Under the pieces are notes generated by a model, which was not told where the DNA came from, did no database searches, and was given only the letters and a program-made list of their open reading frames with translations. 64,000 nt of DNA, taken from the IMG/VR virus record IMGVR_UViG_3300043101_000273; one strand, 5' to 3'. The position numbers and the translations under genes are program-made. Positions within the stretch are counted from its first letter, which is position 1, and every line of letters starts with the position of its first letter. Positions 3,091 to 61,210 of the stretch are shown here, in pieces. The DNA comes from an uncultured virus (IMG/VR IMGVR_UViG_3300043101_000273). Taxonomy: Duplodnaviria > Heunggongvirae > Uroviricota > Caudoviricetes.

Positions 3091-4146
3091 TCAAATTGCT
3101 ACATCTGTATATTTATCGTTGATTACAAGTGTATTTCCATCACAATCAACCTCATAGGTTATTGTGTTATCCTTTGACTTCTTTTCAACCGCATTGTTAA
3201 ACAATGTGTTGTTGAGGATTGCCATTGCTTTACTTGTGTTGAGGTTTACTCTTGCATTGGCTACCTTTACACCTGTTCTTTTCACAAGGTTTTTGAGGTA
3301 CTCCCTCTTTTCGTTTATATCCATATTTGCAAGGATATCATTCTGTTTGTCAAGTTCATTATTAATAGCTGTATCAAAAGCATTCAACTTTTTGCCACTC
3401 TCAATTTTTTTAAGTGTTGCATTGATTGAAGGTACTGTTTTAAGACCTTTGATATAGACTTCAATTTCTCTTGTCTGTCTTGCACCATTGATTTCCTTTT
3501 CGTTGTCGATACCCTCATACACGTTATCTGAAGTAACACCATACTGTTTAAGTACCTCAATTTGCTCTTCGGTATACTTGTTTGCATACGGGTTAGGAAA
3601 ATAAGTGTTATTAAGATACTTTGCGACTTTATTCTTAATACTTGCGTTATTAAGAACTTCAAGCATATCAACAAACTTTTTGTTATCAACAGCCGTATCG
3701 TCCGTAATAGGTCTGTTCAACAAATTGACAGTTGCTCTAACCTCATTTTCAGAATACTTTTTGATGTTTTCTAAGAAGTCCATATTATCAACAAATTTCT
3801 TAGGTACGATAACTTCCATAGTAGGAATGTTTACTGTGCCATTTACCACATAGGACTGATTTCTGTAAATGTGGCATCTGATTGTTTTATCCAAACCAAC
3901 AGCTTTTGCTGTTTTTGGGTTCAACTGAACCTCTCCATAGATTTTATTTCTTATTGAAAAATTCAATTCCATACCGCTAGTAACGATATTGTTGGCAAGT
4001 GATGTAATAATAGTTTCTTTATCTGCCTTAAACATATTAAAATTGTCATTAACCTTAGCTGTGATACGCTTGTAGTCATTTGCGTAAACTACCTTTGCAT
4101 TATTACTTGCAAGTGTGTTTATTACTGTAACGATTGATTTTGTCAT
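3091..4146 (-). CDS. Hypothetical protein, 351 aa
   Basis: Long ORF, AAGGAGG RBS, promoter -35 at 4242, terminator 3056-3085. Confidence 0.9.
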   Translation of the reverse strand: MTKSIVTVINTLASNNAKVVYANDYKRITAKVNDNFNMFKADKETIITSLANNIVTSGMELNFSIRNKIYGEVQLNPKTAKAVGLDKTIRCHIYRNQSYVVNGTVNIPTMEVIVPKKFVDNMDFLENIKKYSENEVRATVNLLNRPITDDTAVDNKKFVDMLEVLNNASIKNKVAKYLNNTYFPNPYANKYTEEQIEVLKQYGVTSDNVYEGIDNEKEINGARQTREIEVYIKGLKTVPSINATLKKIESGKKLNAFDTAINNELDKQNDILANMDINEKREYLKNLVKRTGVKVANARVNLNTSKAMAILNNTLFNNAVEKKSKDNTITYEVDCDGNTLVINDKYTDVAI

Positions 4147-4532
4147 ATTGATTTCCTCCTTAATAGTGAATAATTATTTGTGTGTTTGTTAAGTATTCAT
4201 TTCTCTTAACTTGTTATTATTATACTACATTTTTTATAATTTGTCAAGTGTTTTTTTGAATTTTTTTAAAAAATTTTATTTATATTTTTAATATGAAAAA
4301 TTGATTATATACTTGTAAAATTGATTACGCAGCATTTCAATAAATCATTCGATAAATAACACTTCGATAAATAACACATTAAATAATTAAAAAAAGGCAT
4401 ATAAGGGTATTTAACAGCTTTATGACGTGTGGTACAATTGTGGTACGATTGTGGAATAATTATGGTACGGTTATTTTTAATAAATAGTTTTTTCAATAAT
4501 AAAAAAAGGGTGATTTATTCACCCTTTAATTT

Positions 4533-44016: not shown

Positions 44017-44245
44017 AGTAAGAAAATAGTAAGAAAAATATAATATATTTAATAAGCATCTTTTATCTTAGGTAAAAACTAAGATATATTCAAGATGACT
44101 TCGGGCGATTTGCCGTCCGAAAGGTGAGGGTAGTTCGTTTCACATATCGCTCAATACTTGCGATAGAACTTTAAGACTTGCACCGCTTTGACGAAAGAAG
44201 CCAACCACTCGCCAGATTCAATATATAGTATGTAATACTTTTTAT
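44017..44245 (+). ncRNA. Unidentified structured ncRNA, copy 1
   Basis: Promoter 43982-44010; covarying helices versus copy 2; 37-nt identical core 44096-44132. Confidence 0.75.
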
Positions 44246-45180
44246 TTTTTAGTTTTTAAAGTTTTATCTAGTAATATAATTTATTAAAAGATAGGCAAAA
44301 AACATTTTATTTACTTATATTTTTGTGAGAATATAGTAAATAATAAATAAAAAATAATATTTGAAGATAACTTTTCAATGAGTTCCAGAGTTAGTATTTC
44401 AAATACTAACAAAAAATACTATTATGTATTGGACAGGTATTATTACTAATATACTGGGAAGCAAAAGAGATTTCAATGGAGAATGGTTAATTCATTAAAA
44501 GCATTGATACTACTATGCTAAAAGGCAAAAGTTAAAACATAGTTGTTTTATTTATAAACCTTTAATAATTATTATATTTTTCATATTACTTAATATTTTA
44601 AAAATGAAAAACTAAATATAAGATAATTTACTTCTAAAAAGAGCAAATATTCTGAATTTATATACAGTGCATATGAAAATATGTGTTGTATATTAAAACC
44701 TTATTAATTGTCTTGATTATTAGTTTTTTTAGAAAATAAATATATTAGTTTTTACTTCTATTTTTGTAGGTTAAAGATGATTTTTAAAACTAATAATTAT
44801 TATTTTCGTATTATAATTAAATATATTTCTTTTAAATATTAAACAATTTACTTCTATTTAATTTTTTAATTATAGACTATGATTAACTTTAATTGTTTAA
44901 ATTGTTAAAATTAATATATTAAGAATCCTGAACATTAGATATGATTTAGTTTACTTCTATTTTTTGATTACAGCAAATATTTCAAATTTATTTAACTAAA
45001 CCAATTACTAATGTTTTTTATTTTCAATAACTAAGATTATATTGTCTTAGTTATTTTTTTATTAGAAAAATTCCTAATAATTATTTATATTTAAACAAAA
45101 AACTTCTTGACAAATTATAAAATGTATGGTATAATATATGTAAATCAAATAATAAATTTCTTTCAAAGGAGAAGTTTTAT

Positions 45181-45987: not shown

Positions 45988-46398
45988 ATGCTTATGGGTA
46001 ATTGGAAATCTGCAAGTCATAACAAATACTTATTACAATATCATCTTATATTTGTATGTAAATACAGAAAAAAATTGCTGATAAGTCAGTATGTTTCTGA
46101 TGATATAAAAAGATTATCAAGGGAGATATGCTATAAGCATAATGTTTCTATAAAGTATATGGAAGTAGACAAAGACCATATTCATTATATGATAGAGACC
46201 AAACCAAACATAAACCTATCAGATTTTGTTAGGACTATGAAAAGTTATACAACTTATCATATATGACAAAAATATTCGCCATATCTAAGTAATTATTTTT
46301 GGAAAGAACATACTTTTTGGACAGATGGATATTTTATATGTTCGGTAGGTAATGTTAGTGAAAAGACTCTCAAAGAGTATATAGAAAATCAAGGTTAG
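45988..46398 (+). pseudogene. tnpA: Y1 HUH transposase with in-frame TGA at 46264-46266
   Basis: YHLIFVCKYR and DHIH motifs; frame continues past TGA with FWTDGYF and the catalytic YIENQ to TAG 46398. Confidence 0.9.
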
Positions 46399-46409
46399 GA
46401 GGTGTAGTT

Positions 46410-47510
46410 ATGAATAAAGCAATCAAATATAGAATATATCCAACAGAAGAACAGAAAATCTTATTTGCTAAGACATTTGGTTGTTGTCGCAAGATATGGA
46501 ACTTAATGCTTGCCGATAAAATAGCTTACTATCAGGCAAACAAGCAAATGTTACAGACTACACCTGCTCAGTACAAGAAAGAATATACATACTTAAAGGA
46601 AGTAGATTCTTTGGCACTTGCAAATGTTCAAATGCACTTACAGACAGCCTACAAAAACTTCTTTACTAACCAAAAAACAGGTTTTCCAAAGTACAAGTCA
46701 GCCAAACACAGTAAGAAAACTTACACTACTAACAACAACAAGCAGAAAGGTACGATTGCATTGTATGATAAAGGCATAAAGTTACCTAAACTTGGTATAG
46801 TAAAGGCTAAGATACACAGAAAACCCGATATAGACTGGGTACTTAAATCTGCTACCATTTCACAAGGCAGTGACGGTAAGTATTATGTATCTGTTCTTTT
46901 TGAGTATAATATTGTGATTGCAAAATCAACAGATAATAAATGTATCGGCTTAGATTACAAATCAGATGGTCTTTATGCAGACAGTGAAGGTAATATTTGT
47001 GGCAGTCCTAAATATTACAGAAAATCACAAGATAAGCTTGCTAAAGCACAGAGAAAACTTAGACACAAAACCATAGGTAGCAATAATTATAAGAAACAGC
47101 AGAAAAACATAGCAAGGATATATACACATATATCAAGCCAAAGAAAAGACTTTCTACACAAAAAATCCACCGAGATAGCCAATCAGTATGACATAGTTTG
47201 TGTGGAAACCCTTGATATGAAGGCTATGGCTAATAAAGGATTTGGTAATGGTAAAGCCACATTAGATAATGGTAATGGTATGTTTCTTACTATGTTGGAT
47301 TATAAACTTACAGATAGAGGTAAACAGCTTGTAAAGGTAGATAAGTGGTATGCCTCTACCCAGATATGTTCAGGTTGTGGTAACAGACACCCTATGAAAT
47401 TATCAGATAGGATATATCATTGTGAGTGCTGCGGTCTTACAATAGATAGAGATTACAATTCAGCAATAAACATAAAAAACGAAGGACTTAGGCTTATAAG
47501 TATAGCCTAA
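46410..47510 (+). CDS. tnpB: RNA-guided endonuclease TnpB
   Basis: AIKYRIYPT N-terminus; RuvC GLD / VETL / DRDYNSAIN; CxxC..CxxC Zn finger; putative omega RNA ~47500-47649. Confidence 0.95.
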   Translation: MNKAIKYRIYPTEEQKILFAKTFGCCRKIWNLMLADKIAYYQANKQMLQTTPAQYKKEYTYLKEVDSLALANVQMHLQTAYKNFFTNQKTGFPKYKSAKHSKKTYTTNNNKQKGTIALYDKGIKLPKLGIVKAKIHRKPDIDWVLKSATISQGSDGKYYVSVLFEYNIVIAKSTDNKCIGLDYKSDGLYADSEGNICGSPKYYRKSQDKLAKAQRKLRHKTIGSNNYKKQQKNIARIYTHISSQRKDFLHKKSTEIANQYDIVCVETLDMKAMANKGFGNGKATLDNGNGMFLTMLDYKLTDRGKQLVKVDKWYASTQICSGCGNRHPMKLSDRIYHCECCGLTIDRDYNSAINIKNEGLRLISIA

Positions 47511-50438: not shown

Positions 50439-50552
50439 TAAGTATATAAAAAAGATGGCTACTTTTTAGTCATCTTTTTTTGTTAAAAATTCTTGACAAA
50501 ACATAAAAAAAGTAGTATAATATAACCAAATTAAAAATAGGAGGTAAATCAA

Positions 50553-51050
50553 ATGACAGTAGGAGAAAGAATCAAAATAAAACGTAAAGAACTAGGTATT
50601 ACACAAGGTAATTTAGCTCAAAAACTTGGGTATAAATCTCGCTCATCAATCAATAAAATTGAGTTAGGTCAACAACAAGTAAGTCAGCATACACTTATTT
50701 TAATTGCTCAAATCTTACAAACAACACCAGATTACTTACTTGGTTACACACAAGACAAAGACGTTACACACGCAGATTTTATAAGAAAGTTGAACAGTTA
50801 TGAAATAAATCGTATAGTAAATGTATTCAACAATGCAACCGAAGCGGATAAGGATAAGTTTTTTGATTTATTAAAAAATTTAATGGAGCAATCAAACGAT
50901 GATAAAGATGCTTTTTTTGAAATATCAAAGAGAGTATTAAGAGCAACTTGTGAGGATAAAAAAATTATCTTAGATATAGTAAAAATACCATTTTTTACTA
51001 ACAGAGAGAAAAAATTACAAAAAGAGGAAGAAGAACAACAACAGACATAA
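50553..51050 (+). CDS. XRE/Cro-CI family HTH transcriptional regulator
   Basis: GERIKIKRKELGITQ..LA..LGYKSRSSINKIELG...YLLG. Confidence 0.92.
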   Translation: MTVGERIKIKRKELGITQGNLAQKLGYKSRSSINKIELGQQQVSQHTLILIAQILQTTPDYLLGYTQDKDVTHADFIRKLNSYEINRIVNVFNNATEADKDKFFDLLKNLMEQSNDDKDAFFEISKRVLRATCEDKKIILDIVKIPFFTNREKKLQKEEEEQQQT

Positions 51051-51184
51051 TAAAAACTAACAAAAAGGGATATTCCTACAACAATATTGGTTCTACAAGA
51101 TTAGAGGATAGCGTATCAACCTCTAATGAAGTTAATTTAGTACCACAAGTTGAAATAACAGAAGCTACTGGTGACATAGAAGAT

Positions 51185-51466
51185 TTGGAAGTTAGTGACA
51201 CTGATTTGAAATATGACGATAGAAGTCCTATTGTAACAGGTAGAATTACAAATACTACAAGTGAGGAAAAAGATTGTTATATTGAAGTAGTTTTCTATAA
51301 TTCAGAGGGTAAAGCAATTGCTGTTACCGAATCAAGTGTTGATAATATTCCTGTAAATGGTAAAAAGAGTTTTGAAAACTCAGGATATTTCATAGAGAAT
51401 AATATAAAATCTACTGATATTACTGATTATAAAGTTTTCGCTAGAATAACTAATTATTTTTATTAA
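51185..51466 (+). CDS. FxLYD-like beta-sandwich fragment (frame open from 51002, no clear start)
   Basis: VTGRITN...VVFYNSEGKAIA...IP..KKSFE. Confidence 0.6.
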   Translation: MEVSDTDLKYDDRSPIVTGRITNTTSEEKDCYIEVVFYNSEGKAIAVTESSVDNIPVNGKKSFENSGYFIENNIKSTDITDYKVFARITNYFY

Positions 51467-51519
51467 TATAAACGAGGGAGATATAATTCTCCCTCTCTTT
51501 TTTAGAAAGGAGAATATAT

Positions 51520-51922
51520 ATGAAAAAATTTGATATAGAAGATAAATTTCTTTATTATTTAGGAATATTTTCAATTGTAATGACAATTATTTATTTTATC
51601 TAAGTATTTCATCATAGAAACAAACTGCTTCTTGAAAAAAATTGTTAATATATATTGTCCTTTATGTGGAGGTACAAGAGCTACTATATTATTATTTCAA
51701 GGAGAGTTTTTAAAAAGCATCTATTATAACCCTATTGTAATTTATACAATATTATTAGGAAGTGTTTTTATGATTAAAAATACTATTGCCATATTGTTTG
51801 ATAAGATTAACGTTTTTAAAATCAACAATAACTATTTATATTTATTTATAGCAATACTAACTCTTAATTTTTTTATTAAGAATTATTTTGTAGTCTTTAA
51901 AAATATTTTCTTAATTGGATAA
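51520..51922 (+). pseudogene. DUF2752-like membrane protein, frameshifted near 51590
   Basis: RBS plus ATG 51520 stops at ~51603; CPLCGGTRA motif continues in another frame. Confidence 0.7.
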
Positions 51923-52149
51923 AAAATGTTTTTTAGTAATATAAAACCAATTATTATTTTTATATAATAAGTGAAGCTGTGTTTTGCAGTTTCCATAGTT
52001 TGCTGCAATGTTCTATTGCAGTTCCTCCTTAAAGTAGTGTGTAATTGTGGTATTTTAAAAGTTACAAAGAAAAGAGTGCTGTCCGATGGCACTCTTTTTT
52101 TGTTTTAAAAATACTTGATAAAAAAGAAAAAATATAGTATAATATACTT

Positions 52150-52375
52150 AATAAGAAAAATATAAAAATGATTTTAACAAGCACCCTTGTTTTTAGAATA
52201 TTCTAAAAATATGTTTCTGGTGACTTCGGGCGATTTGCCGTCCGAAAGGTGAGGGTAATTCATTTCACATACCATTCAACACTTGTGGTAGAATTTTAAG
52301 ACTACACCAAAAAATGACGAGTAGTAGCCCACCACTCACCAAATTCAATATATAGTATATAATACTTTTTTATTT
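52150..52375 (+). ncRNA. Unidentified structured ncRNA, copy 2
   Basis: Promoter 52115-52143; identical core 52221-52257; covariation versus copy 1. Confidence 0.75.
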
Positions 52376-52595
52376 TTTTAGTTTTTTTAAATTCTGTCGA
52401 TGTATTGTAATGTAAAAATGCTAAGAGATTGACAGAAAATTAAAAACGCTTTATTTGCCTATGTTTTTGTGAAAATATAGTAAATAATAAATAAGAAATA
52501 ATAATTGGAGGTAACTTTTCAATGAGTTCGACAAGATTAGTGTTTCAAATACTAACAAAATACACTATTGTATATTGAACGGGTATTAATACTAA

Positions 52596-52928
52596 TATAG
52601 TGGAAAAGCAAAACAAGTTGATATAATACCAGCGAATAAACAAATAACTGAATTTACTGTTACAGATACAGAATTAAAATATAAGAATAAAGTTCCTGTT
52701 GTTACAGGCAAAATAAATAATACTAATAATACAGAACAAAATGTTTGTTTAAAAGTCATATTCTATGATTTTGATAATGAAGCTATTGCTATTAGCGATA
52801 CAAATATTATTATTCCTGCAAATTGTAAAAAGACTTTTGAAATAAAAGGATATTATATAAAGGATAAAGTTGAAGAAGGAATTATAACTAATTATAAAAT
52901 ATCCGCTCAAACTAAATATTTACAATAA
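52596..52928 (+). pseudogene. Start-less FxLYD-like paralog of 51185
   Basis: Hand translation TDTELKY..PVVTGKINN..VIFYDFDNEAIA..IPANCKKTFE; in-frame stop upstream, no ATG. Confidence 0.7.
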
Positions 52929-53003
52929 TTATTGTATAAATAAAGAAAATCAAGCATATAATATAAATATCTTATTAAATCTTTTTGTTAAGGAGAAAAT
53001 TAT

Positions 53004-53426
53004 ATGTTTAGTATGAATGAAATTGAAACCATTACAAATGATTTTAAAAATTATTTAATAAACAATTATATTGAAAAAGAAAATGTAGAAATTATAGAAG
53101 AAAAAACTTCATTAGCAGAACTTATTGATACTTTAAAAACAGATAAAAATGTTAGTTTAGAATGGTGGAGCGAATATAAAAGAAAAATTAAATCTGGTGA
53201 TATTGTTTATATACCTAATATTAAAAAGTTTGGTATATTCATTTGTCCAGCAGTAAAAAAAGATAAGGTAAGAATTAGATTACTTAAAAATGAAGATAAA
53301 AATAGTGCATATACAACTGATTGGTTCTTTGATTATAATGAAATAAAGATAGTTAAGCATAATAATAAATTAACAAGAAGTTTTACTGAAACAGAAGATA
53401 ATTTTATTTATAAATATGCTCAATAA
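53004..53426 (+). CDS. Hypothetical protein, possible SH3/KOW-like C-terminus
   Basis: AAGGAG RBS; IKSGDIVYI motif. Confidence 0.75.
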   Translation: MFSMNEIETITNDFKNYLINNYIEKENVEIIEEKTSLAELIDTLKTDKNVSLEWWSEYKRKIKSGDIVYIPNIKKFGIFICPAVKKDKVRIRLLKNEDKNSAYTTDWFFDYNEIKIVKHNNKLTRSFTETEDNFIYKYAQ

Positions 53427-53475
53427 TTTTAAAAAAGATATTGACAAAGTTTAAAAAATATGGTATAATATATTT

Positions 53476-53675
53476 GTTCTTAAAAGAGAACGGTAGGAGA
53501 ATTTCAACTCCTCCCTTAAATATTGTCGTTAATGGAAAGGTATCTTTCCTTGGCAATAAAGCTTGTTTTGGAAGAAGTTACAGTGCTTCTTGCTTTTATA
53601 ACATTATGTTTATATTTAGTAAGCAGAGAAAAACTTTGTGTACAAACAAGGTATATATATTGTAAAGTTGCATTT
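53476..53675 (+). ncRNA. tracrRNA-like scaffold RNA, copy 1
   Basis: Promoter TTGACA 53441 / TATAAT 53464; loop AATTTCAA 53500-53507 complementary to repeat 3' end; anti-repeat 53651-53673 complementary to repeat 5' part. Confidence 0.8.
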
Positions 53676-53684
53676 AGAATACAA

Positions 53685-53869
53685 GTGCGAATCTTAAAAA
53701 GCAATATTATTTTTATATAATTAAAAAATTAGATTCGCACCTGAAATTTTGCACAAAATTCAATATTTTTTAATGGTAAATGATTTTTATAAAAAGTTAT
53801 TTACTTGCTAGTTGTTTATTATAACAAAGCAAAATTTAAAAATCGAATATTTTTTTGTGCAATATCGCA
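53685..53869 (+). promoter_or_regulatory. CRISPR leader 1 with two inverted repeats
   Basis: GTGCGAATCT 53685 / AGATTCGCAC 53731; TTGCACAAAA / TTTTGTGCAA; homologous to leader 2. Confidence 0.75.
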
Positions 53870-54087
53870 GTTGCAACTTATACACATATATGTATTGAAA
53901 TTGTAATGGTTCTGAACAAAATGAATCAGCAGCTATGTTGCAACTTATACACATATATATATTGAAATTATAAAAAAATTCTCTTCACCGTGTGTGGAAT
54001 TGTTGCAATTCATATATGTATATATGTTGGAATTATCTAAAAAATAAATGTTATGCAGGGAATGTTCCAACTCATATATATTGGAAT
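53870..54087 (+). CRISPR. CRISPR array 1: 4 repeats (GTTGCAACTTATACACATATATGTATTGAAAT, degenerating distally), 3 spacers of 35, 33, 30 nt
   Basis: Repeats at 53870, 53937, 54002 and 54064 (truncated). Confidence 0.88.
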
Positions 54088-54197
54088 TTAATATTGAAAA
54101 CACACTTGATAAAATTAAAATAAAATTTTTATTATTTCGTTTAATATTTCTCTTTATTTATATATATAATATATGAAAATAAAAAGGGAGGTAAAAA

Positions 54198-54416
54198 ATG
54201 ATGACAATAACTTTTAGTAATATTCAAACAGTCAAAGATTTTGTAAATACAACTAATAAATGCACAGGTGATATTGAAGTAAAATCAGATAGATATGTAG
54301 TAGACGGTAAGTCTATTATGGGACTGTTTTCTTTAGACTTTTCTTTACCAGTAGAGGTTATTACTCATAATCCAGATGATTTAAATACAATCAAAGATTT
54401 TATAAACACATTGTAA
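54198..54416 (+). CDS. HPr-family phosphocarrier-like protein (Ser46 motif kept, no His15)
   Basis: VDGKSIMGLFSL motif; GGAGG RBS; 72 aa. Confidence 0.85.
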   Translation: MMTITFSNIQTVKDFVNTTNKCTGDIEVKSDRYVVDGKSIMGLFSLDFSLPVEVITHNPDDLNTIKDFINTL

Positions 54417-54624
54417 TTTATTTAATTGATTATCCATTTTTGCCATTTTGTGATAATCCTCCTTGCAAATAATAGATTACAATTCAAAAAAGAGCTTAGT
54501 TTCGCCACTAAGTTCTTTTTTTATTGAAAAATTGCAGAAAATGTTGACAAATGATAAAAAATGTAGTATAATATGATTACAAAAAACACAAAATTATTTT
54601 AAATTATCAAAGGAGAAAATAAAA

Positions 54625-56301
54625 ATGGCTAAATCAGAAAAGAAATGCTTTGTAGTACAAATACCTTTGAACCTTGAAAAATTCCAAATTGATTTTTTAA
54701 ATAAGAAATTGGAAGATTGTAGAAAGGTATATAATACGGTTCTTAGTATAACATTAAAAAGATATAAAGAAATGCAAAAGACTAAGAAATATAAGTATAT
54801 AGAAAAAACTACTGAAAAATATTGGAAACCTATCAATGATTATAAAAATCAAATAGATGAGTTGAACAATGAAGTAGCTGATATAAACGAACTTTTAAAA
54901 AATAATAATTTGTCTAACGAAGAAATTATTGATTTAAATAATAAGAAGAAAGATATTGCAGCTCAGATAAAAACACTTATAGCAGAAAAGAAAAAATTAA
55001 ATGATGAATTTAAATTAATTAAACCTGAATTCAATAACATAAAAAACGGATTATTAAAAGAATATCATATTTCTAAATATGGGTTCGATAAAGATATTCG
55101 AAAAGTATATTCTCATTTTAACATACCATCTAAAACAGCTGAAAGTATTAGAGACGATATTTGGAGAGCTTATGATAAAAACTTATGGGGTAATGGAAAA
55201 AGATTTCATTTCAAGCGTTATAATACTGTTGATTCTATAAATGGCAGTTCTAATAATCAAACTGTTAAGTTAGACCTTGAAAAGAATTGTGTAACCTACA
55301 TGAAAAAAGATTATCCTATTAAGTTTCCTAAAAATAACAACTACATTATAGAAGCTTTAAATAATAACAAAATAATTAGATGTAGAATTGTTCGTAAGTC
55401 CATAAAGAAAAAAGATAGATTTTTTGTACAGGCAACATTAAATGGTACTCCACCTACTAATTACAATCGTCTTATGGGCAACGGTAAAGTTGGTATTGAT
55501 ATTGGTACTCAGACTATTGCTGTCGTTGGAAAAAACGATATAAAGTTGGAAGAACTTGCCAAAGGAGTACAAGATATTCAAAATCAACTTAGAATAATTA
55601 ACAGAAAAATGGATAGAAGTAGAAGAGCTACTAATCCTGATAATTATAATGAAGATGGTACTATTGTTAAAGTAAAAAAAGGTGAAAAGCGTAATTGGCA
55701 TTATTCTAAAAACTATAAAAAATTAGCAGCAGAAAGAAAAGAACTTTTCAGGAAGCAAGTTGATTTAAGAAAACTTTCTCACGAAACACTTGCAAATGAA
55801 ATTATTGGAATGGGTGATGAGTTCTATATAGAAGATATGGAGTTTCAAGCATTACAGAAAAAAGCAAAAGAAACCACTAAAAACTCAAAAGGCAAGTTTA
55901 ATAGCAAAAAAAGGTTTGGCAAGTCTATTGCTAATAAAGCTCCTGCAATGGCTAAGTCTATTTTGAAAAGAAAACTTGGATATTACGGTAAAGAGCTTAT
56001 TGAAATAAAAACTAAAAAAGCTAAAGCAAGTCAATATAATCATGTGGATAATACTTATATTAAGGCTGAATTAAGCGTAAGAAGCAAAGATATTGGTGGT
56101 CATAAAATACAGCGTGATTTATATAGTGCTTTTCTTATTAGTAACATCAATCCTGACTTGGAAACATTTAATAGAGTTGGTTGTAATATTAAGTTTGATA
56201 ACTTTTGTAAAATGCATGATAAAAAAATAATCGAGCTTAAAAATGATGATTCAATTCATAATTTATCAAGTTTAGGTTTGAAAGATTTTTCTGAAAAATA
56301 A
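54625..56301 (+). CDS. CRISPR-associated TnpB-derived RuvC nuclease (compact Cas12-like effector), 558 aa
   Basis: RuvC-I GIDIG (D292), RuvC-II IEDM (E403), RuvC-III QRDLYSA (D498); TnpB-like N-terminus CRKVYN; no CxxC; own promoter 54544-54572. Confidence 0.88.
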   Translation: MAKSEKKCFVVQIPLNLEKFQIDFLNKKLEDCRKVYNTVLSITLKRYKEMQKTKKYKYIEKTTEKYWKPINDYKNQIDELNNEVADINELLKNNNLSNEEIIDLNNKKKDIAAQIKTLIAEKKKLNDEFKLIKPEFNNIKNGLLKEYHISKYGFDKDIRKVYSHFNIPSKTAESIRDDIWRAYDKNLWGNGKRFHFKRYNTVDSINGSSNNQTVKLDLEKNCVTYMKKDYPIKFPKNNNYIIEALNNNKIIRCRIVRKSIKKKDRFFVQATLNGTPPTNYNRLMGNGKVGIDIGTQTIAVVGKNDIKLEELAKGVQDIQNQLRIINRKMDRSRRATNPDNYNEDGTIVKVKKGEKRNWHYSKNYKKLAAERKELFRKQVDLRKLSHETLANEIIGMGDEFYIEDMEFQALQKKAKETTKNSKGKFNSKKRFGKSIANKAPAMAKSILKRKLGYYGKELIEIKTKKAKASQYNHVDNTYIKAELSVRSKDIGGHKIQRDLYSAFLISNINPDLETFNRVGCNIKFDNFCKMHDKKIIELKNDDSIHNLSSLGLKDFSEK

Positions 56302-56346
56302 TTAAAAACCATTGACAAAGTTTAAAAAATATGGTATAATATAATT

Positions 56347-56546
56347 GTTCTTAAAAAAAGAATAGTAGGAGAATTTCAACTCCTTCTTTAAATGTTACCG
56401 CTAATGGATGGGTTACTGTCCTTGGTAATAAAGCTTGTTTGGAAAAAGTTTTAGTGCTATTTGCTTTTGTAACATTATGTTTATATTTAGTAGGTAGAGA
56501 AGAATTTTGTGTACAAACAAGGCATATATATAGTAAAGTTGTAATT
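56347..56546 (+). ncRNA. tracrRNA-like scaffold RNA, copy 2
   Basis: Promoter 56312-56340; loop AATTTCAA 56372-56379; anti-repeat 56522-56545; compensatory changes versus copy 1. Confidence 0.82.
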
Positions 56547-56556
56547 AAAAATATAA

Positions 56557-56741
56557 GTGCGAATCCCTAAAATCTAATACCGATTTTAGGCGTTTGAAAA
56601 TGGGGTTCGCACCTATAAAATTGTACAAAAGTTAATATTCATTTAACAACAAATAACTTTTGTAATTTGTTATTTATATATTATTTGTTTAATGCGAGTA
56701 AATAATAATTCGAAAATTGAATATTTTTGTGCAATTTTGCT
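56557..56741 (+). promoter_or_regulatory. CRISPR leader 2
   Basis: GTGCGAATCCC 56557 / GGGGTTCGCAC 56602; TTGTACAAAA / TTTTGTGCAA. Confidence 0.75.
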
Positions 56742-57100
56742 GTTGCAACTTATACATATGTATGTATTGGAATGTGTTTGGTAAAACAACATCAGTAGTA
56801 TTTGATGTTGCAACTTATACATATGTATGTATTGGAATTGATGCTGTAACTCACAAGGGTTGGATTGCTAGGTTGCAACTTATACATATGTATGTATTGG
56901 AATTAAGAAAAATGAGCCTTATGTTGTGGCAACAGCGTTGCAACTTATACATATGTATGTATTGGAATTGTATTGCTATTATTTGATTTCACTTGCATTT
57001 CAGTTGCAACTTATACATATATATGTATTGGAATTGTAACGGAAGTTAATGATTTATTCACAGAAGATGTTGCAACTTACATATGTATATGTATTGGAAT
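56742..57100 (+). CRISPR. CRISPR array 2: 6 repeats of 32 nt (GTTGCAACTTATACATATGTATGTATTGGAAT), 5 spacers of 33, 33, 33, 34, 34 nt
   Basis: Repeats at 56742, 56807, 56872, 56937 identical; 57003 and 57069 carry variants. Confidence 0.97.
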
Positions 57101-57334
57101 TTACCAACTAATCAACTTGGCGGTACAGGTAAGATTTTTAATTGGGAATTTGCAGCTACTTTTGCAAAAACTCACAATACCGTACTTGCAGGTGGTATAA
57201 ATAGTAAAAACATAATAAAAGCATACAAAACCGTACTTCCACAAGTGATTGATTTAAGTTCATCAGTTGAGAAAAACGGTTTTAAAAGTTATAACAAAAT
57301 AAAAGAATTAATACAAACAATTAGAAAGGAATGA
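57101..57334 (+). pseudogene. trpF: C-terminal fragment of phosphoribosylanthranilate isomerase
   Basis: GGTGKIFNW, LAGGINSKNI, IDLSSSVE.NGFKS..KI match TrpF motifs; N-terminal half absent. Confidence 0.85.
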
Positions 57335-57340
57335 TATTAA

Positions 57341-57664
57341 ATGGCTGAATTTGAAGATATTAATATAGATTTATCTAAACGTACTCCTGCCGAATGGTCG
57401 GATATCTACCATTTAAAACTTTATAATTCTCCACCACGTCAGCTTTGGACTGAATTTGAGTGGGCTTATAATCTTCCTAATTTGGATTATCAATATATCC
57501 TCATAAATGATTCTTCCGAAGAAGCAGAGGAAATGGAACTTAGAGCTTTTGATATTAAAAATCTTATTTTCCATCTTGCTGATAAAAGCGAAAAGGAAAT
57601 TCTTAAAACAAAATACATTGAAACTGAATGGATAAGGAAAAAACTTATTATAAACGATTTTTAA
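57341..57664 (+). CDS. Hypothetical protein
   Basis: AAAGGA RBS; closely follows the trpF fragment. Confidence 0.8.
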   Translation: MAEFEDINIDLSKRTPAEWSDIYHLKLYNSPPRQLWTEFEWAYNLPNLDYQYILINDSSEEAEEMELRAFDIKNLIFHLADKSEKEILKTKYIETEWIRKKLIINDF

Positions 57665-57680
57665 GATTGGAGATACCATA

Positions 57681-58262
57681 ATGAATAAAATATTGCACAC
57701 TAAAAATCCTATAAATGATACTATTGATGAAATTTTATTAAAAGAGTATTTAGATAAAGCTATATCAGCAACTTCTGAAAAGATAAGAAATTTACTTTAT
57801 GAGTATTCTTCTTCTCATAAAAATGAAGTTTACATAATAATAGATATCCTTTCTGATATAATCTCAAATAAGGATTATACTAAAGAAGCTCGTTCTTTAA
57901 ATAAAATAAAGAATATTATTAATATTGGTATTTTAGGAATGATAGATGATGAGTTTGTTAATGACTTATATAAATTAAAAAATATTAACCCTGATGGAAA
58001 TAAAATAAATTTGTTAGATTTTTGTACTCAACAAAATTTACTTATTCATTGTGCAAACTTTTCTCATCTTATAAAACAATTTGTTTATATATCACTTATT
58101 TCAAAAGACCCAAATACTATAAATAATATTATAACAAATGAAGAAATAACTATTCCTGACCAAGATGCTATGAATATTATTTGTTGTTTTTCACTTCTTT
58201 TTATTGAGAGTCTAAAAACTGATATCGTTTATATTTCTTATTTTTCTAATTTAGAAAAATGA
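57681..58262 (+). CDS. Hypothetical protein, paralog of 61214
   Basis: Shared TS.KI..LL, IISNK, NIICCF. Confidence 0.85.
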   Translation: MNKILHTKNPINDTIDEILLKEYLDKAISATSEKIRNLLYEYSSSHKNEVYIIIDILSDIISNKDYTKEARSLNKIKNIINIGILGMIDDEFVNDLYKLKNINPDGNKINLLDFCTQQNLLIHCANFSHLIKQFVYISLISKDPNTINNIITNEEITIPDQDAMNIICCFSLLFIESLKTDIVYISYFSNLEK

Positions 58263-58390
58263 ACCTTTTAGTCACGATTGTTTTATCGTGACTTTTTGTC
58301 GAAAAAACTCCATTATTTCTTGACAAATCATAAAAAATATGGTATAATATAAACATAAAAATAATATTTTTCCAAAAGGAGGTCTTTATT

Positions 58391-59536
58391 TTGCAAAGCA
58401 TTGATTTTATAAAAACTGATAGTCTTATATATAAGGAATATTTAAAAATAATAAAAGACACTTTTTCTACTTATGTTGTTTGTGATAAAGAAAAAGATGC
58501 AGTTAAAACTATGTGTGAATATATAGAAGATTTAATCAAAAAATCACCAATAAAGTATAAAAATAATTATTTTAAATCTTTTATTAATGAATATTTTAAA
58601 ACTATTAATATTGATAGTATGCAAGAATTTTATAATAATCATCAGGAGTTCTCTTTTTTTGAGTATAATACTTCTTATCATTATGGATATATTCTCCTTG
58701 CTTCTTGTTTGAATATTTCAATTTCTTCACATTTGATAAATCATCCAGAAGAAAATTATGTTTTAACAGAAGAAAGAACTTTAAACATTATTCTTAATTA
58801 TATTGATACTTATTTGACAGTACTTAATAGTAGCTTTATTTCTTCAAAACACGCTATGGATTCTATATCTAATAGAAATTTTCATGAATTTGAAGGTCTT
58901 GTTGTTTTAAAAGATGATTTAAATAAACTACAAGATAAGTATGATAAATTAAAAGCTTCTATTGATATTAAGGTTTCTGATGAAATAAAAAAACAGTCTA
59001 ATAGCATAGAACAAGAAAAAACTACTATGTTATCTGAACAGAAACATCTTAAAGAAAAAATTAAAGCTTTAGAAGAAAAGAATAATGAACTTCAAAAAAA
59101 TCTTAATAAGCAAATAAAAATAAACACTCATAATGAAAATTTGCTTAATAAAATGAAGTCCAATAATACTTCTTCTAAAAATATTACTACTAATATTCCT
59201 GAAAGCAATTCTACAATCTCAGAAGAACCACAAGATAGAAGTATTAATATTAATAGAAAAATACTTTTTGTAGGAGCTTCTCCTAGTATGCTTAGTAAAT
59301 TACAAAATATATATTCTAATGCACAAAATACTGATTTCAATTCTGCTAAGATAAATAAGAATTTTGTTAGTAAATTCGATTGTATTGTTTTCTTAAATGC
59401 AAAGCCTACTACAAATCCTTATAATGCTTATGCAAAGATTAAAACCATTGCTGATAAATGTAAAATTAAATATATCAATTGTAAAAATAATAATATAGAC
59501 TTAATTGTAGATAATATTGAAAATACTTTTACTTGA
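58391..59536 (+). CDS. Coiled-coil protein with C-terminal DUF2325-like domain
   Basis: ILFVG...IVFL...KIK..ADK.KIKYI.C; paralog of 59555. Confidence 0.75.
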   Translation: MQSIDFIKTDSLIYKEYLKIIKDTFSTYVVCDKEKDAVKTMCEYIEDLIKKSPIKYKNNYFKSFINEYFKTINIDSMQEFYNNHQEFSFFEYNTSYHYGYILLASCLNISISSHLINHPEENYVLTEERTLNIILNYIDTYLTVLNSSFISSKHAMDSISNRNFHEFEGLVVLKDDLNKLQDKYDKLKASIDIKVSDEIKKQSNSIEQEKTTMLSEQKHLKEKIKALEEKNNELQKNLNKQIKINTHNENLLNKMKSNNTSSKNITTNIPESNSTISEEPQDRSININRKILFVGASPSMLSKLQNIYSNAQNTDFNSAKINKNFVSKFDCIVFLNAKPTTNPYNAYAKIKTIADKCKIKYINCKNNNIDLIVDNIENTFT

Positions 59537-59554
59537 TAATTGGAGGTACACACT

Positions 59555-61210
59555 ATGAATGGAATACATATTGATAGTAAAGCAAGGCAACTTGCAGATT
59601 TTATGGAAATAACTGATAAAACACTTACTAATAATGTTGGTATTAGTACTAAAAAAGGTTTTTCTTCTGCAATTCTTGATATCGTAGAAAAAACAATAAA
59701 AAAAGAATCTATTGCTTTTAAAAATGAACAATTTGAAAAATTTATTGATGTCTTTTGCATTAAGAATAGTCAGGTAAGTATAAATAAAATAACAGACTTA
59801 TATACTAATCATCCCGAAAAAATCAATCAAAAGGAAATTCTTAATTATATAGATGAAAGATATCAATATAATATGTTCTTCTGCTTCTGTACTAAAGAAT
59901 TTTCTAAGAAAGGGAATATTACAGAAATAACTCCTAATGAAGCATTACAAGTTATTTTCCTTTGTATTGTTGATACTTTTAAGTTCTTATCTCAAAAAGC
60001 AGACAGTATTACCCTTAATAATACAGAATCTCAGGTTTGTTTTAAAACTACCGAAGAAGTAGGTAAATATACAACAGATTTGTTAAGGAAATTACTTAAT
60101 AATTGTATTAATACTTCAACTCGTAATATAGGAGATATTGTCTTAGAACTTATTGAAGCAGCTGTAAATAAAAAAGAATTAAATATTAAAGATTCTTATT
60201 TTGAAAGTTATGTTCAAGAAATTCTAACAGAAGAATTTATTTATCTTATTCGTAAACAGTATTGTACATTTCAAGGCACTTTTGAATTTTCAAGTAAGGA
60301 AGTAGAAGTTTTTGCTAATATCCTTAATGATATCGTAAGAATGTTTTATGCGTCTGAAACAGTTATGACTCCTGATGGAGAACCTTACCTTACGGATGAA
60401 CAAGGAATGTCTATAATCTTTATGTTTATATATACTATCGTGAATGTTATGACTCATCACGCTAAATATGACGAACTTAAAAAAGAAAAAAAGATAGATG
60501 ATAAAGTTTATAAGGATGATGTAGATAGTTGTTATAAACTCGTTGATAAATTGAAGAATAAAAATACTTCTCTTGAAAATGATTTAATAACAATTAAAGG
60601 CAAGTATGAAAAATTAAAAAACTCTTTAGATGCAAGAATAGAAAAGAAAGTAGAAAAGCAGTCTAAACTCTTAGAACAAGAAAAAAGTTCTATTGTTTCT
60701 GAAAATAACAGATTGAAAGCTAAATTGGAACAGTTACAAGAAGAAAATACAAAACTTCAAAATACTCTTAACAAACACGAGAAACAAGCCATTAATAATG
60801 AAAAGATTGATACTCTTAATAAGAGAATAAAAACTCTTACGGAACAAAATGCTCAGTTAAGACAGGCAATTGCAAATCCTACTACGGAAGATTTTGATGA
60901 GTTTGAAGATATGCCTGATGATAGAGCTATAAACATCAATAGAAATCTTTTGTTTATTGGCGGTCATACTACTACTCTGGATAAGTTGCAGAATATTTAT
61001 TCAAAAGCTGATTATGTTTCTAATGAAACGACTGAAATAAATCAGAATTATATGAATAACTTTGAAGGTATTGTTTTCTTAACTGATTTCTTATCTCATA
61101 ACCTTTATAAGAAGATTAAGAAGTTAGCAGATAAATATAAAATTAAATATATACATTGTAAAAATAACAATGTTGATTTGATTGTGGATGATATAGAAAA
61201 TAATTTTTAA
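59555..61210 (+). CDS. Coiled-coil protein with C-terminal DUF2325-like domain (start revised)
   Basis: LFIGGH...IVFLTDFLSHNLY motif; GGAGG before ATG 59555. Confidence 0.8.
   Translation: MNGIHIDSKARQLADFMEITDKTLTNNVGISTKKGFSSAILDIVEKTIKKESIAFKNEQFEKFIDVFCIKNSQVSINKITDLYTNHPEKINQKEILNYIDERYQYNMFFCFCTKEFSKKGNITEITPNEALQVIFLCIVDTFKFLSQKADSITLNNTESQVCFKTTEEVGKYTTDLLRKLLNNCINTSTRNIGDIVLELIEAAVNKKELNIKDSYFESYVQEILTEEFIYLIRKQYCTFQGTFEFSSKEVEVFANILNDIVRMFYASETVMTPDGEPYLTDEQGMSIIFMFIYTIVNVMTHHAKYDELKKEKKIDDKVYKDDVDSCYKLVDKLKNKNTSLENDLITIKGKYEKLKNSLDARIEKKVEKQSKLLEQEKSSIVSENNRLKAKLEQLQEENTKLQNTLNKHEKQAINNEKIDTLNKRIKTLTEQNAQLRQAIANPTTEDFDEFEDMPDDRAININRNLLFIGGHTTTLDKLQNIYSKADYVSNETTEINQNYMNNFEGIVFLTDFLSHNLYKKIKKLADKYKIKYIHCKNNNVDLIVDDIENNF

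Follow-up and report, generated by a model that had tools for sequence, protein, structure and literature searches.

In this work we describe a compact locus that encodes a 558-amino-acid (aa) nuclease of TnpB descent beside two short CRISPR arrays, found in a 64,000-nt stretch of DNA, hereafter the window, from the uncultured virus record IMGVR_UViG_3300043101_000273 of IMG/VR; all positions are those of the window, unless another record is named. The nuclease gene sits between two non-coding modules, each consisting of a promoter, a structured RNA of about 200 nt with a terminal anti-repeat, a spacer region and a CRISPR array (Table 1). The anatomy of the locus, the homology of its protein and RNAs, the layout found in relatives and the presence of the RNAs in gut libraries lead us to read it, with a probability of about 0.8, as a domesticated IS200/IS605 TnpB that serves as effector of a compact type V-like CRISPR system dependent on a trans-activating CRISPR RNA (tracrRNA), of the TranC or V-U kind.

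The non-coding module is present in two copies of about 430 nt (53433-53860 and 56304-56735), 77-92% identical in blocks, and the stem that separates anti-repeat from array in module B differs from its module A counterpart on both strands, with pairing kept. Over both arrays, one 440 nt downstream of the nuclease gene and the other 537 nt upstream of it, 8 distinct spacers of 30-35 nt are separated by a 32-nt repeat, GTTGCAACTTATACATATGTATGTATTGGAAT; array B repeats carry 0-4 mismatches, the leading five being identical or different at 1 position and the last being the most degenerate. A single RuvC effector gene beside a CRISPR array with unique spacers is thus found, as in type V systems. 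In contrast, the marks of a mobile IS200/IS605 insertion sequence (IS), an adjacent TnpA and/or left and right ends with an omegaRNA ending at the right end (RE), are absent: no Y1 TnpA lies beside the nuclease gene, the sole Y1_Tnp match in the window (45988-46266) being part of another, ordinary IS at a distance of about 8 kb. A search of 53000-57400 against Rfam returned only chance matches under threshold. Most of this anatomy had been proposed by a reading made from the sequence alone, which listed a promoter of the nuclease gene's own, no adjacent tnpA, no IS-type end hairpins, no cas1/cas2, a promoter, structured RNA, leader and 6-repeat array directly downstream (56312-57100) and a diverged second copy of that module upstream; all of these were borne out.

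Table 1. Features of the nuclease locus, in window coordinates
Feature	Position	Strand	Basis
Promoter of module A, TTGACA-17-TATAAT with TG extension	53441..53469	+	12/12 sigma-70 consensus
tracrRNA A, omegaRNA-derived, terminal anti-repeat 53649-53673	53476..53673	+	R1 model, duplex, RNA-library contigs
Conserved stem GTGCGAATCT...AGATTCGCAC separating anti-repeat A from array A	53685..53740	+	read from sequence
CRISPR array A: 3 repeats, 24-nt degenerate remnant, 3 spacers	53870..54087	+	repeat search; remnant read by eye
72-aa open reading frame with strong ribosome-binding site, between array A and nuclease promoter	54198..54416	+	weak HPr-like match
Promoter of nuclease gene	54544..54572	+	12/12 sigma-70 consensus
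TnpB-derived RuvC nuclease (candidate effector), 558 aa	54625..56301	+	open reading frame list, profiles, AlphaFold2, Foldseek
Promoter of module B	56312..56340	+	12/12 sigma-70 consensus
tracrRNA B, omegaRNA-derived, stems 1-3, terminal anti-repeat 56517-56546	56347..56546	+	R1 model, duplex, minimum free energy fold, RNA-library contigs
Conserved stem GTGCGAATCCC...GGGGTTCGCAC around small hairpin	56557..56612	+	read from sequence
CRISPR array B: six 32-nt repeats and five spacers, each 33-34 nt long	56742..57100	+	repeat search
C-terminal third of trpF (PRAI) gene, abutting last array B repeat	57101..57334	+	Pfam PRAI E 2.3e-17, profile 125-192 of 193

Judged from its sequence, the nuclease is a member of the TnpB/Cas12 superfamily, and to curated libraries it is a distant TnpB. 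It matches phrog_506 'transposase' of PHROG (E 1e-35) and guided_TnpB of NCBIfam (E 6.8e-17, 61.8 bits, for a cut-off of 100), while the matches to Pfam OrfB_IS605 and to its helix-turn-helix domain are both under cut-off. The best Cas profiles of PADLOC, Cas12u4 (E 2.8e-11, 41 bits, aa 280-505) and Cas12f (E 1e-9, 35.9 bits), cover the RuvC half only, and no full-length match to a Cas12n (V-U4) or Cas12f (V-F) profile was found in that collection. Searching PDB sequences with phmmer returned nothing relevant to the nuclease, with no Cas12 at E <= 1; a profile of its family gave a weak match to 9j09_A, deposited as 'Transposase' (E 6e-4), and did not match LaTranC. No protein of GenBank phages exceeded 47% identity to the nuclease.

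The structural model, built by AlphaFold2 from a 22-sequence alignment (mean predicted local distance difference test score 85.6), has the WED-REC-RuvC-TNB fold, with WED strands at the N-terminus and at aa ~204-273, and a REC that includes an insertion at aa 54-146. Foldseek returned 55 PDB matches at E <= 0.001, those listed being TnpB, Cas12 or Fanzor chains; the best was ISFba1 TnpB 8iaz (E 7e-12, template modelling score 0.73 on the target), followed in order by Cas12p, Cas12m2, CnCas12f1, AsCas12f and ISDra2 TnpB. The intact RuvC-I/II/III triad D292/E403/D498, already pointed out from the sequence, is invariant in the 22 aligned sequences, and cleavage of target DNA by this site is predicted. 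The absence of a zinc finger was likewise confirmed: the nuclease has no CxxC pairs, the corresponding TNB positions read A468/S469...H473...Q496-R497-D498 across the family, and no aligned member has the CCCC zinc finger of the domain. Some TnpBs without the four cysteines are mentioned in a figure legend of the PMC10691335 supplement. Compared with its ~486-aa relatives, the nuclease is about 70 aa longer because of the REC insertion, placed at aa ~65-140 by the sequence-only reading and here at ~60-145, for which the model shows two long helices, aa 54-91 and 98-146, forming a helical hairpin; it also bears a 9-residue C-terminal extension.

An exact copy of the protein was found on 9 contigs, the largest of 502,690 bp, the next relative being P0002 (547 aa, 64% identity), followed by a very large family whose members have ~486 aa and 41-47% identity; a protein search of IMG/VR for the window nuclease returned nothing. 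A genome scan yielded 80 loci of relatives, nearly all in Bacillota and often multi-copy or on contigs of about 2 kb. A Y1 TnpA lies directly upstream in all four IS-type loci tested. Five identical TnpA-TnpB copies within one metagenome-assembled genome (L028-L032) have right sides that diverge exactly after ...GAGTTTCAG, and left flanks that all end in TTAC, the likely target-adjacent motif. The same four bases follow the last array B repeat in the window, which we treat as a coincidence. In the IS-type relatives about 170 nt after the stop codon are conserved, and a 34-sequence alignment of this region supports 38 base pairs, 26 of them with compensatory changes. By sequence comparison, then, the nuclease has its nearest relatives in TnpA-carrying IS200/IS605 elements whose omegaRNA is conserved.

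A covariance model of this transposon omegaRNA, R1, was run on the 64-kb window and gave one match below E 1, at 56350-56454 (25.7 bits, E 1.2e-4), which starts 3 nt after the predicted start of the module B RNA. With filters off, module A was found too (53453-53583, 23.3 bits, E 3.4e-5), the next best match having an E of 0.23. Since R1 matches the window only at the two modules, the structured RNA of each is taken to be an omegaRNA-derived tracrRNA. The matched part comprises stems 1 and 2 (CGCUAAUGG...CCUUGG), and the terminal hairpin is skipped; the minimum free energy fold of the module B RNA, which reproduces the omegaRNA stems, contains the long-range stem 3 (GCUUGUUUG / CAAACAAG) as well. 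In the transposons, the omegaRNA ends with the hairpin CCAACG-loop-CGUUGG, followed by AGUGUCAG and then by the guide. Both the hairpin and the RE motif are absent at the nuclease locus, where their place is held by the anti-repeat and by an array repeat ending in ...UAUUGGAAU, followed by a spacer. The anti-repeats are found about 170-200 nt after the predicted start of each module; the anti-repeat B:repeat duplex has a predicted energy of -24.0 kcal/mol, compared with -13.9 +/- 2.7 for 200 random windows of the same length, and the anti-repeat A:repeat A duplex one of -21.2 kcal/mol. On this sequence evidence the predicted anti-repeat:repeat duplex replaces the omegaRNA terminal hairpin. The guide is thus split into a tracrRNA homologous to the transposon right-end RNA (reRNA), or omegaRNA, and a CRISPR RNA (crRNA) encoded by the array, which is a defining feature of TranC. 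Jin et al. (Cell, 2025) reportedly presented TranC as transposon-CRISPR intermediates, with 'functional RNA splitting'.

A co-occurrence of homologs with arrays, proposed as a check of the sequence-only reading, was indeed observed. Arrays are present at 7 of the 80 genome loci (L036, L046, L059, L060, L062, L078 and L083) and at 1 of 80 IMG/VR loci (L165), with 2-9 repeats of 32-33 nt, the first of which lies 195-245 nt past the stop codon. Between gene and array, R1 matches seven of these eight loci (E 3e-11 to 2e-3), missing L046, and no TnpA was found in any of the seven with testable upstream ORFs (open reading frames), the upstream neighbours being varied and unrelated. The L036 repeat has the same first 12 nt as the window repeat; a TTTTGC[C/T] before the first repeat and the motif TTCGCACC, which in the relatives comes just after the stop codon, are common to the array-linked loci and the window modules, and are not found in the transposon omegaRNA. 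Four further candidates (L041, L071, L088 and L151) were rejected as array-linked, their periodic-repeat signals coming either from an upstream array that is unrelated or from repeats at a distance of over 1 kb from the gene. In L041 an IS-type relative stands immediately downstream of an unrelated CRISPR array (1545-1760 of that locus, repeat core GCCCTCGTGCGTGTGGGTGTCAG), and the periodic signal of L088 is a tandem repeat with a 52-nt period.

One clade unites the six full-length array-linked proteins in quick trees, while the window nuclease and P0002 sit on a long stem among IS-type, TnpA-linked ~486-aa TnpBs (Shimodaira-Hasegawa-like approximate likelihood-ratio support 96). A single clade of all array-linked proteins was not rejected by the approximately unbiased test (p 0.208), in which P0002 was labelled 'array' with its locus not known; with this value one origin, two origins or exchange of RNA modules are all compatible. 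The protein tree places the window clade among IS-type TnpBs, yet its repeat start, TTTTGC(T/C) and TTCGCACC match those of the other array-linked clade; on a bolder reading, array linkage would have arisen twice in this TnpB family, or the tracr-array module would have been swapped between nuclease lineages.

RNAs of the tracr modules are present in gut RNA libraries. Six animal gut metatranscriptome runs in the index each contained 5-16% of the sampled words of the stretch, and the contigs of four were examined. They cover tracrRNA B in all four runs, starting at 56368-56399 and ending at 56521-56526 or further, and tracrRNA A in three (53491/53496/53499 to 53675/53680/53743). In three runs contigs extend over the anti-repeat, the first array B repeat and what lies between them, one contig (56393-56770) joining tracrRNA B to that repeat; two runs cover repeat1-spacer1-repeat2 of array B (56741-56835 and 56744-56838), and one run covers leader A with the first array A repeat (contig 53752-53902). 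The contig ends near 56521-56526, seen in three runs, were not read as RNA ends, one of these contigs, of 123 nt (56399-56521), being flanked by adapters. Two runs contain a variant of tracrRNA B with 12 differences, two of which, A56459>G and T56495>C, fall on predicted pairing partners, and four others keep G-U/A-U pairing. Positions 53908-56320, which include the rest of array A, the 72-aa ORF and the nuclease gene, and 56956-57200 lie outside the contig coverage of the four runs; this gap was neither read as silence nor used to rule out DNA carry-over.

Taken together, the omegaRNA homology of the modules, the anti-repeats, the eight array-linked relatives, TnpA-less wherever testable, and the RNA-library contigs bear out the earlier suggestion that a TnpB clade has here been recruited to CRISPR. 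In the mechanism that we propose, transcription of each module would start at its own consensus promoter; the RNA would fold as omegaRNA stems 1-3 over its first ~170 nt and act as anti-repeat over the next ~30 nt, and transcription would probably continue through the spacer region of about 195 nt into the array. Pairing of anti-repeat and repeat, presumably followed by processing, would rebuild the ancestral omegaRNA terminal hairpin from two RNAs, with the spacer in the place of the transposon's flank-derived guide. The nuclease may then assemble with the tracr:crRNA pair into a ribonucleoprotein, locate spacer-complementary DNA, probably beside a short 5' protospacer-adjacent motif (PAM), and cut it at the RuvC site. 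As adaptation genes are lacking, the arrays would be either static or filled in trans. The likeliest target, as a guess, would be relatives that compete with the element.

A number of observations weigh against this interpretation. Cas1, Cas2 and Cas4 have no Pfam match among the 62 window ORFs scanned, and G001, a 379-kb IMG/VR record which is classed as a complete provirus and whose first 48,164 bases are 100% identical to window 1-48164, yielded no Cas1; an adaptation module is not obligatory for V-U, V-K, V-M or most V-F systems. Array A is degenerate, its repeats (53870-54033) having 3-7 mismatches each, followed by a shortened remnant at 54064-54087. The nuclease locus lies 5-9 kb beyond the end of the G001 record, and calling it phage-borne rests on promoter modules and composition. 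A locus for P0002 was sought in metagenome contigs, with only a 35%-identical TnpA-linked element (L010) found, and in IMG/VR, with none. The metatranscriptome contigs show neither strand nor RNA ends, and DNA carry-over is not formally excluded. Finally, the sole spacer match is a near-match in the element's own genome: the other 7 spacers have no alignment of at least 23 nt in G001, arrays A and B have no match in GenBank phages nor array B in PLSDB plasmids, and a 29-nt core of spacer B2 has 0 matches in IMG/VR. A degenerate repeat pattern also had 0 matches in IMG/VR, and the arrays of L165, L078 and L059 had none in GenBank phages. The comparison of spacers with phage and plasmid databases, from which the sequence-only reading had hoped to obtain targets and a PAM, thus gave no external match, and for lack of external protospacers no PAM could be derived.

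The identity over 48,164 bases implies that the window belongs to the same genome as G001 or to a near-identical one, and G001 was rejected as a related competitor phage on this ground. The match of spacer B1 to G001 168749-168781 (32/33, with the mismatch at spacer position 3 and a 5' flank ...TTCTTTT) is accordingly a self near-match and not a competitor match. Its flank, which reads TTTT, or TTTG in the case of a 33-nt repeat, was not used as a PAM, the site being presumably uncut. The site falls inside an ORF of 1229 aa whose N-terminus resembles that of a neighbouring large ORF, and which is tail-fibre-like as far as sequence and position tell. This match suggests another reading, that of a functional RNA-guided nuclease engaged not in usual defence, but in cutting allelic variants in co-infecting relatives, through marker exclusion or through homing and gene conversion, or else in regulating the element's own tail-fibre-like gene. 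The position of the sole protospacer, its mismatch and its T-rich 5' flank speak in its favour, and so does the ancestral role of TnpB, a homing-like retention of its transposon; yet one spacer of eight is involved, no relative's sequence with an exact B1 match was found, and protection of the resident copy by the position-3 mismatch is an assumption, so that we hold this reading to be unlikely. A specific form of it, put forward with the same reserve as an improbable scenario, is RNA-guided allele exclusion: spacers would target variable genes common to close relatives, the own copy would be spared by a PAM-proximal mismatch, and co-infecting relatives would be cut and then either eliminated or repaired with the resident genome as template, whereby the resident alleles would spread. 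If true, this would be a CRISPR-format version of the ancestral homing role. The earlier proposal of inter-element competition keeps the B1 near-match as its footing and receives nothing from the other seven spacers. In the absence of any further spacer match the biological role stays conjectural.

Among the observations just listed, the degeneration of array A, the missing adaptation module and the lack of an external target, together with the truncated trpF gene abutting array B, would also suit a decaying relic, in which nuclease and RNAs are still made and the arrays no longer direct useful cleavage. We consider this quite unlikely, in view of the intact catalytic triad, the three perfect consensus promoters, the anti-repeats kept in both modules, the near-identity of the leading five array B repeats and the RNA-library contigs over the modules. 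That the locus might be nothing but an ordinary mobile IS200/IS605, or a TnpB gene with an unrelated host CRISPR array merely beside it, is very improbable and already disfavoured: the best family matches of the protein are indeed transposon families and L041 shows that a relative may adjoin an unrelated array, but at the window gene TnpA, omegaRNA terminal hairpin and RE motif are missing, an omegaRNA homologue with a matching anti-repeat precedes an array twice, and the same layout recurs with related repeats in eight relatives. The domesticated TnpB with split guide RNA is therefore the reading that we retain.

The carrier is, as its sequence indicates, a very large AT-rich phage-like element from animal gut. 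GC content is 0.19-0.31 throughout, with no change of composition across the G001 boundary, and the neighbouring protein of 731 aa has a match to the phage family phrog_33734 (E 1e-50); these features, together with common promoter modules, led us to assign the nuclease locus to the same element. Most window ORFs have no Pfam family, and an alternative genetic code was rejected, since TAG or TGA readthrough adds few ORFs and the standard code fits. The module A promoter is one of a 5-copy promoter family within 51-59.5 kb. A stereotyped promoter module, made of TTGACAAA, an A-rich spacer containing AAAAAATATGG and TATAAT, is found in six copies within 50473-58365 (at 50.5, 52.1, 53.4, 54.5, 56.3 and 58.3 kb), and the majority of the 83 matches in G001 are of this module; this recurrence in window and G001 suggests one dominant promoter class of the element.

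Around the nuclease, the 72-aa ORF has a match to Pfam PTS-HPr just under cut-off (E 1.5e-4, 22.1 bits, cut-off 23) and is followed by a hairpin with a T-run at 54484-54520; it is at most a candidate accessory of the system. The trpF fragment has no PRAI counterpart in G001. It matches 96 of 300 Clostridia-class genomes with a best identity of at most 46%, from which neither donor nor host can be inferred, and it could be a relic of the flank where the ancestral transposon or locus inserted. The separate ordinary IS200/IS605 element occupies 45988-47510, a segment locally richer in GC (0.31) just inside the end of the IMG/VR record. It encodes a 92-aa Y1 TnpA fragment (E 9e-21) along with a TnpB of 366 aa in which the three Pfam domains are all present, the zinc-finger TNB among them. 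An element of about 400-500 nt, with 78-85% identity among copies, is present at least twice in the window (52107-52613 and 44096-44465) and about five times in G001 (3699-4191, 278967-279356, 332568-332958, 354233-354718 and, shorter, 83296-83488); the copy at 52107 starts with the element's consensus promoter, has no long ORF and gives nothing in Rfam at E <= 0.1, and the family may consist of non-coding RNAs or small genes. At 58391-61210 lie two adjacent paralogous coiled-coil proteins of 381 and 556 aa, sharing a C-terminal DUF2325-like region (E 6.5e-7 for the latter, under cut-off).

The locus offers a natural snapshot of the passage from transposon guide RNA to CRISPR guide, in which transposon relatives, their omegaRNA, array-linked relatives and the split version can be compared side by side; the point of splitting can be made out at the terminal hairpin, and gut RNA libraries contain the RNAs. 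The pool of compact nucleases also gains a candidate effector of 558 aa, without zinc finger and predicted to be tracr-dependent, from a very large phage-like element, and the self near-match in the tail-fibre-like gene points to competition among related elements as a role that can be tested.

Transitions of this kind are not rare. Passages of PMC10691335 (Altae-Tran et al. 2023) describe TnpB-to-Cas12 transitions with downstream arrays as frequent, with 40 candidate V-U branches (V-U6 to V-U45), and 'about 50 events' are mentioned in a part of PMC12669027, the CRISPR classification of 2025. For TranC, our account draws on parts of two citing preprints (bioRxiv 10.64898/2026.03.27.714800 and 10.1101/2025.09.28.678669) and on PDB entries 9jfq and 9jfo; the former preprint includes, in the sections used, phage-borne clades (CauTranC9) and Ruminococcaceae/Oscillospiraceae members, with 32-36-nt repeats. 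The concept is therefore already published and is not changed by the present system, and of the 'undescribed miniature effector' announced by the sequence-only reading the kind is known, while the lineage may be new, matching no described clade in a comparison made without the published clade sequences.

The nearest structural match, ISFba1 TnpB (8iaz), and ISDra2 TnpB (8exa/8h1j) represent the IS200/IS605 nucleases whose omegaRNA stems 1-3 are kept in the tracrRNA, and the sequence relatives at 42-47% identity are TnpA-linked multi-copy elements; the window locus, unlike these, has no TnpA and no transposon ends, its terminal hairpin is opened into anti-repeat and repeats, and its guides are array spacers, in addition to the longer protein. 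With Cas12n (V-U4) and Cas12f (V-F), the source of its best PADLOC Cas profiles, the system shares small size and predicted tracrRNA dependence; it differs in that the matches are low-scoring and its nearest sequence relatives are transposon TnpBs, and it lacks the zinc finger of the Cas12f TNB/ZF domain. Cas12p (PDB 9jfs), the second-best structural match (E 2.7e-11, 11% identity), is presented in the portions of the 'hacker' preprint consulted (bioRxiv 10.1101/2025.01.20.633832) as a phage-encoded early TnpB-to-Cas12 intermediate of 500-700 aa, with a ~185-nt tracrRNA bearing omegaRNA-like stems; zinc-finger and thioredoxin-binding domains are ascribed to it there, and such features were neither tested for in this comparison nor seen here.

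The closest resemblance is to TranC and to V-U6 to V-U45. As the sources cited for TranC have it in part, TranC nucleases are TnpB-sized (300-600 aa) and close to IS-encoded TnpBs, use a tracrRNA homologous to the transposon right-end RNA with crRNA from a short downstream array of 32-33-nt repeats, and have no adaptation genes, some members being phage-borne; the 558-aa nuclease and its 32-nt repeats fall within this description. Similarly, the V-U branches, in the passages of PMC10691335 concerned, are Cas12-like effectors derived independently from TnpB, with a short array downstream in the place of the omegaRNA; cas1/2/4 are absent from most of them, and many lie on mobile elements. LaTranC, on the other hand, is a distant structural match (Foldseek rank 28, 12% identity), and the window differs from TranC in having two tracr-array modules with their own promoters, a tracrRNA wholly after the stop codon and an interval of about 195 nt that separates anti-repeat from array; in its nuclease, moreover, the zinc finger is missing and REC contains an inserted helical hairpin. 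Since the system shows the testable features of TranC and type V-U, and not those of a mobile IS, Cas12f or Cas12n, we place it with the former; what distinguishes it is the pair of promoter-driven tracr-array modules around the gene, the tracrRNA outside the ORF, the zinc-finger-less TNB and the REC helical hairpin.

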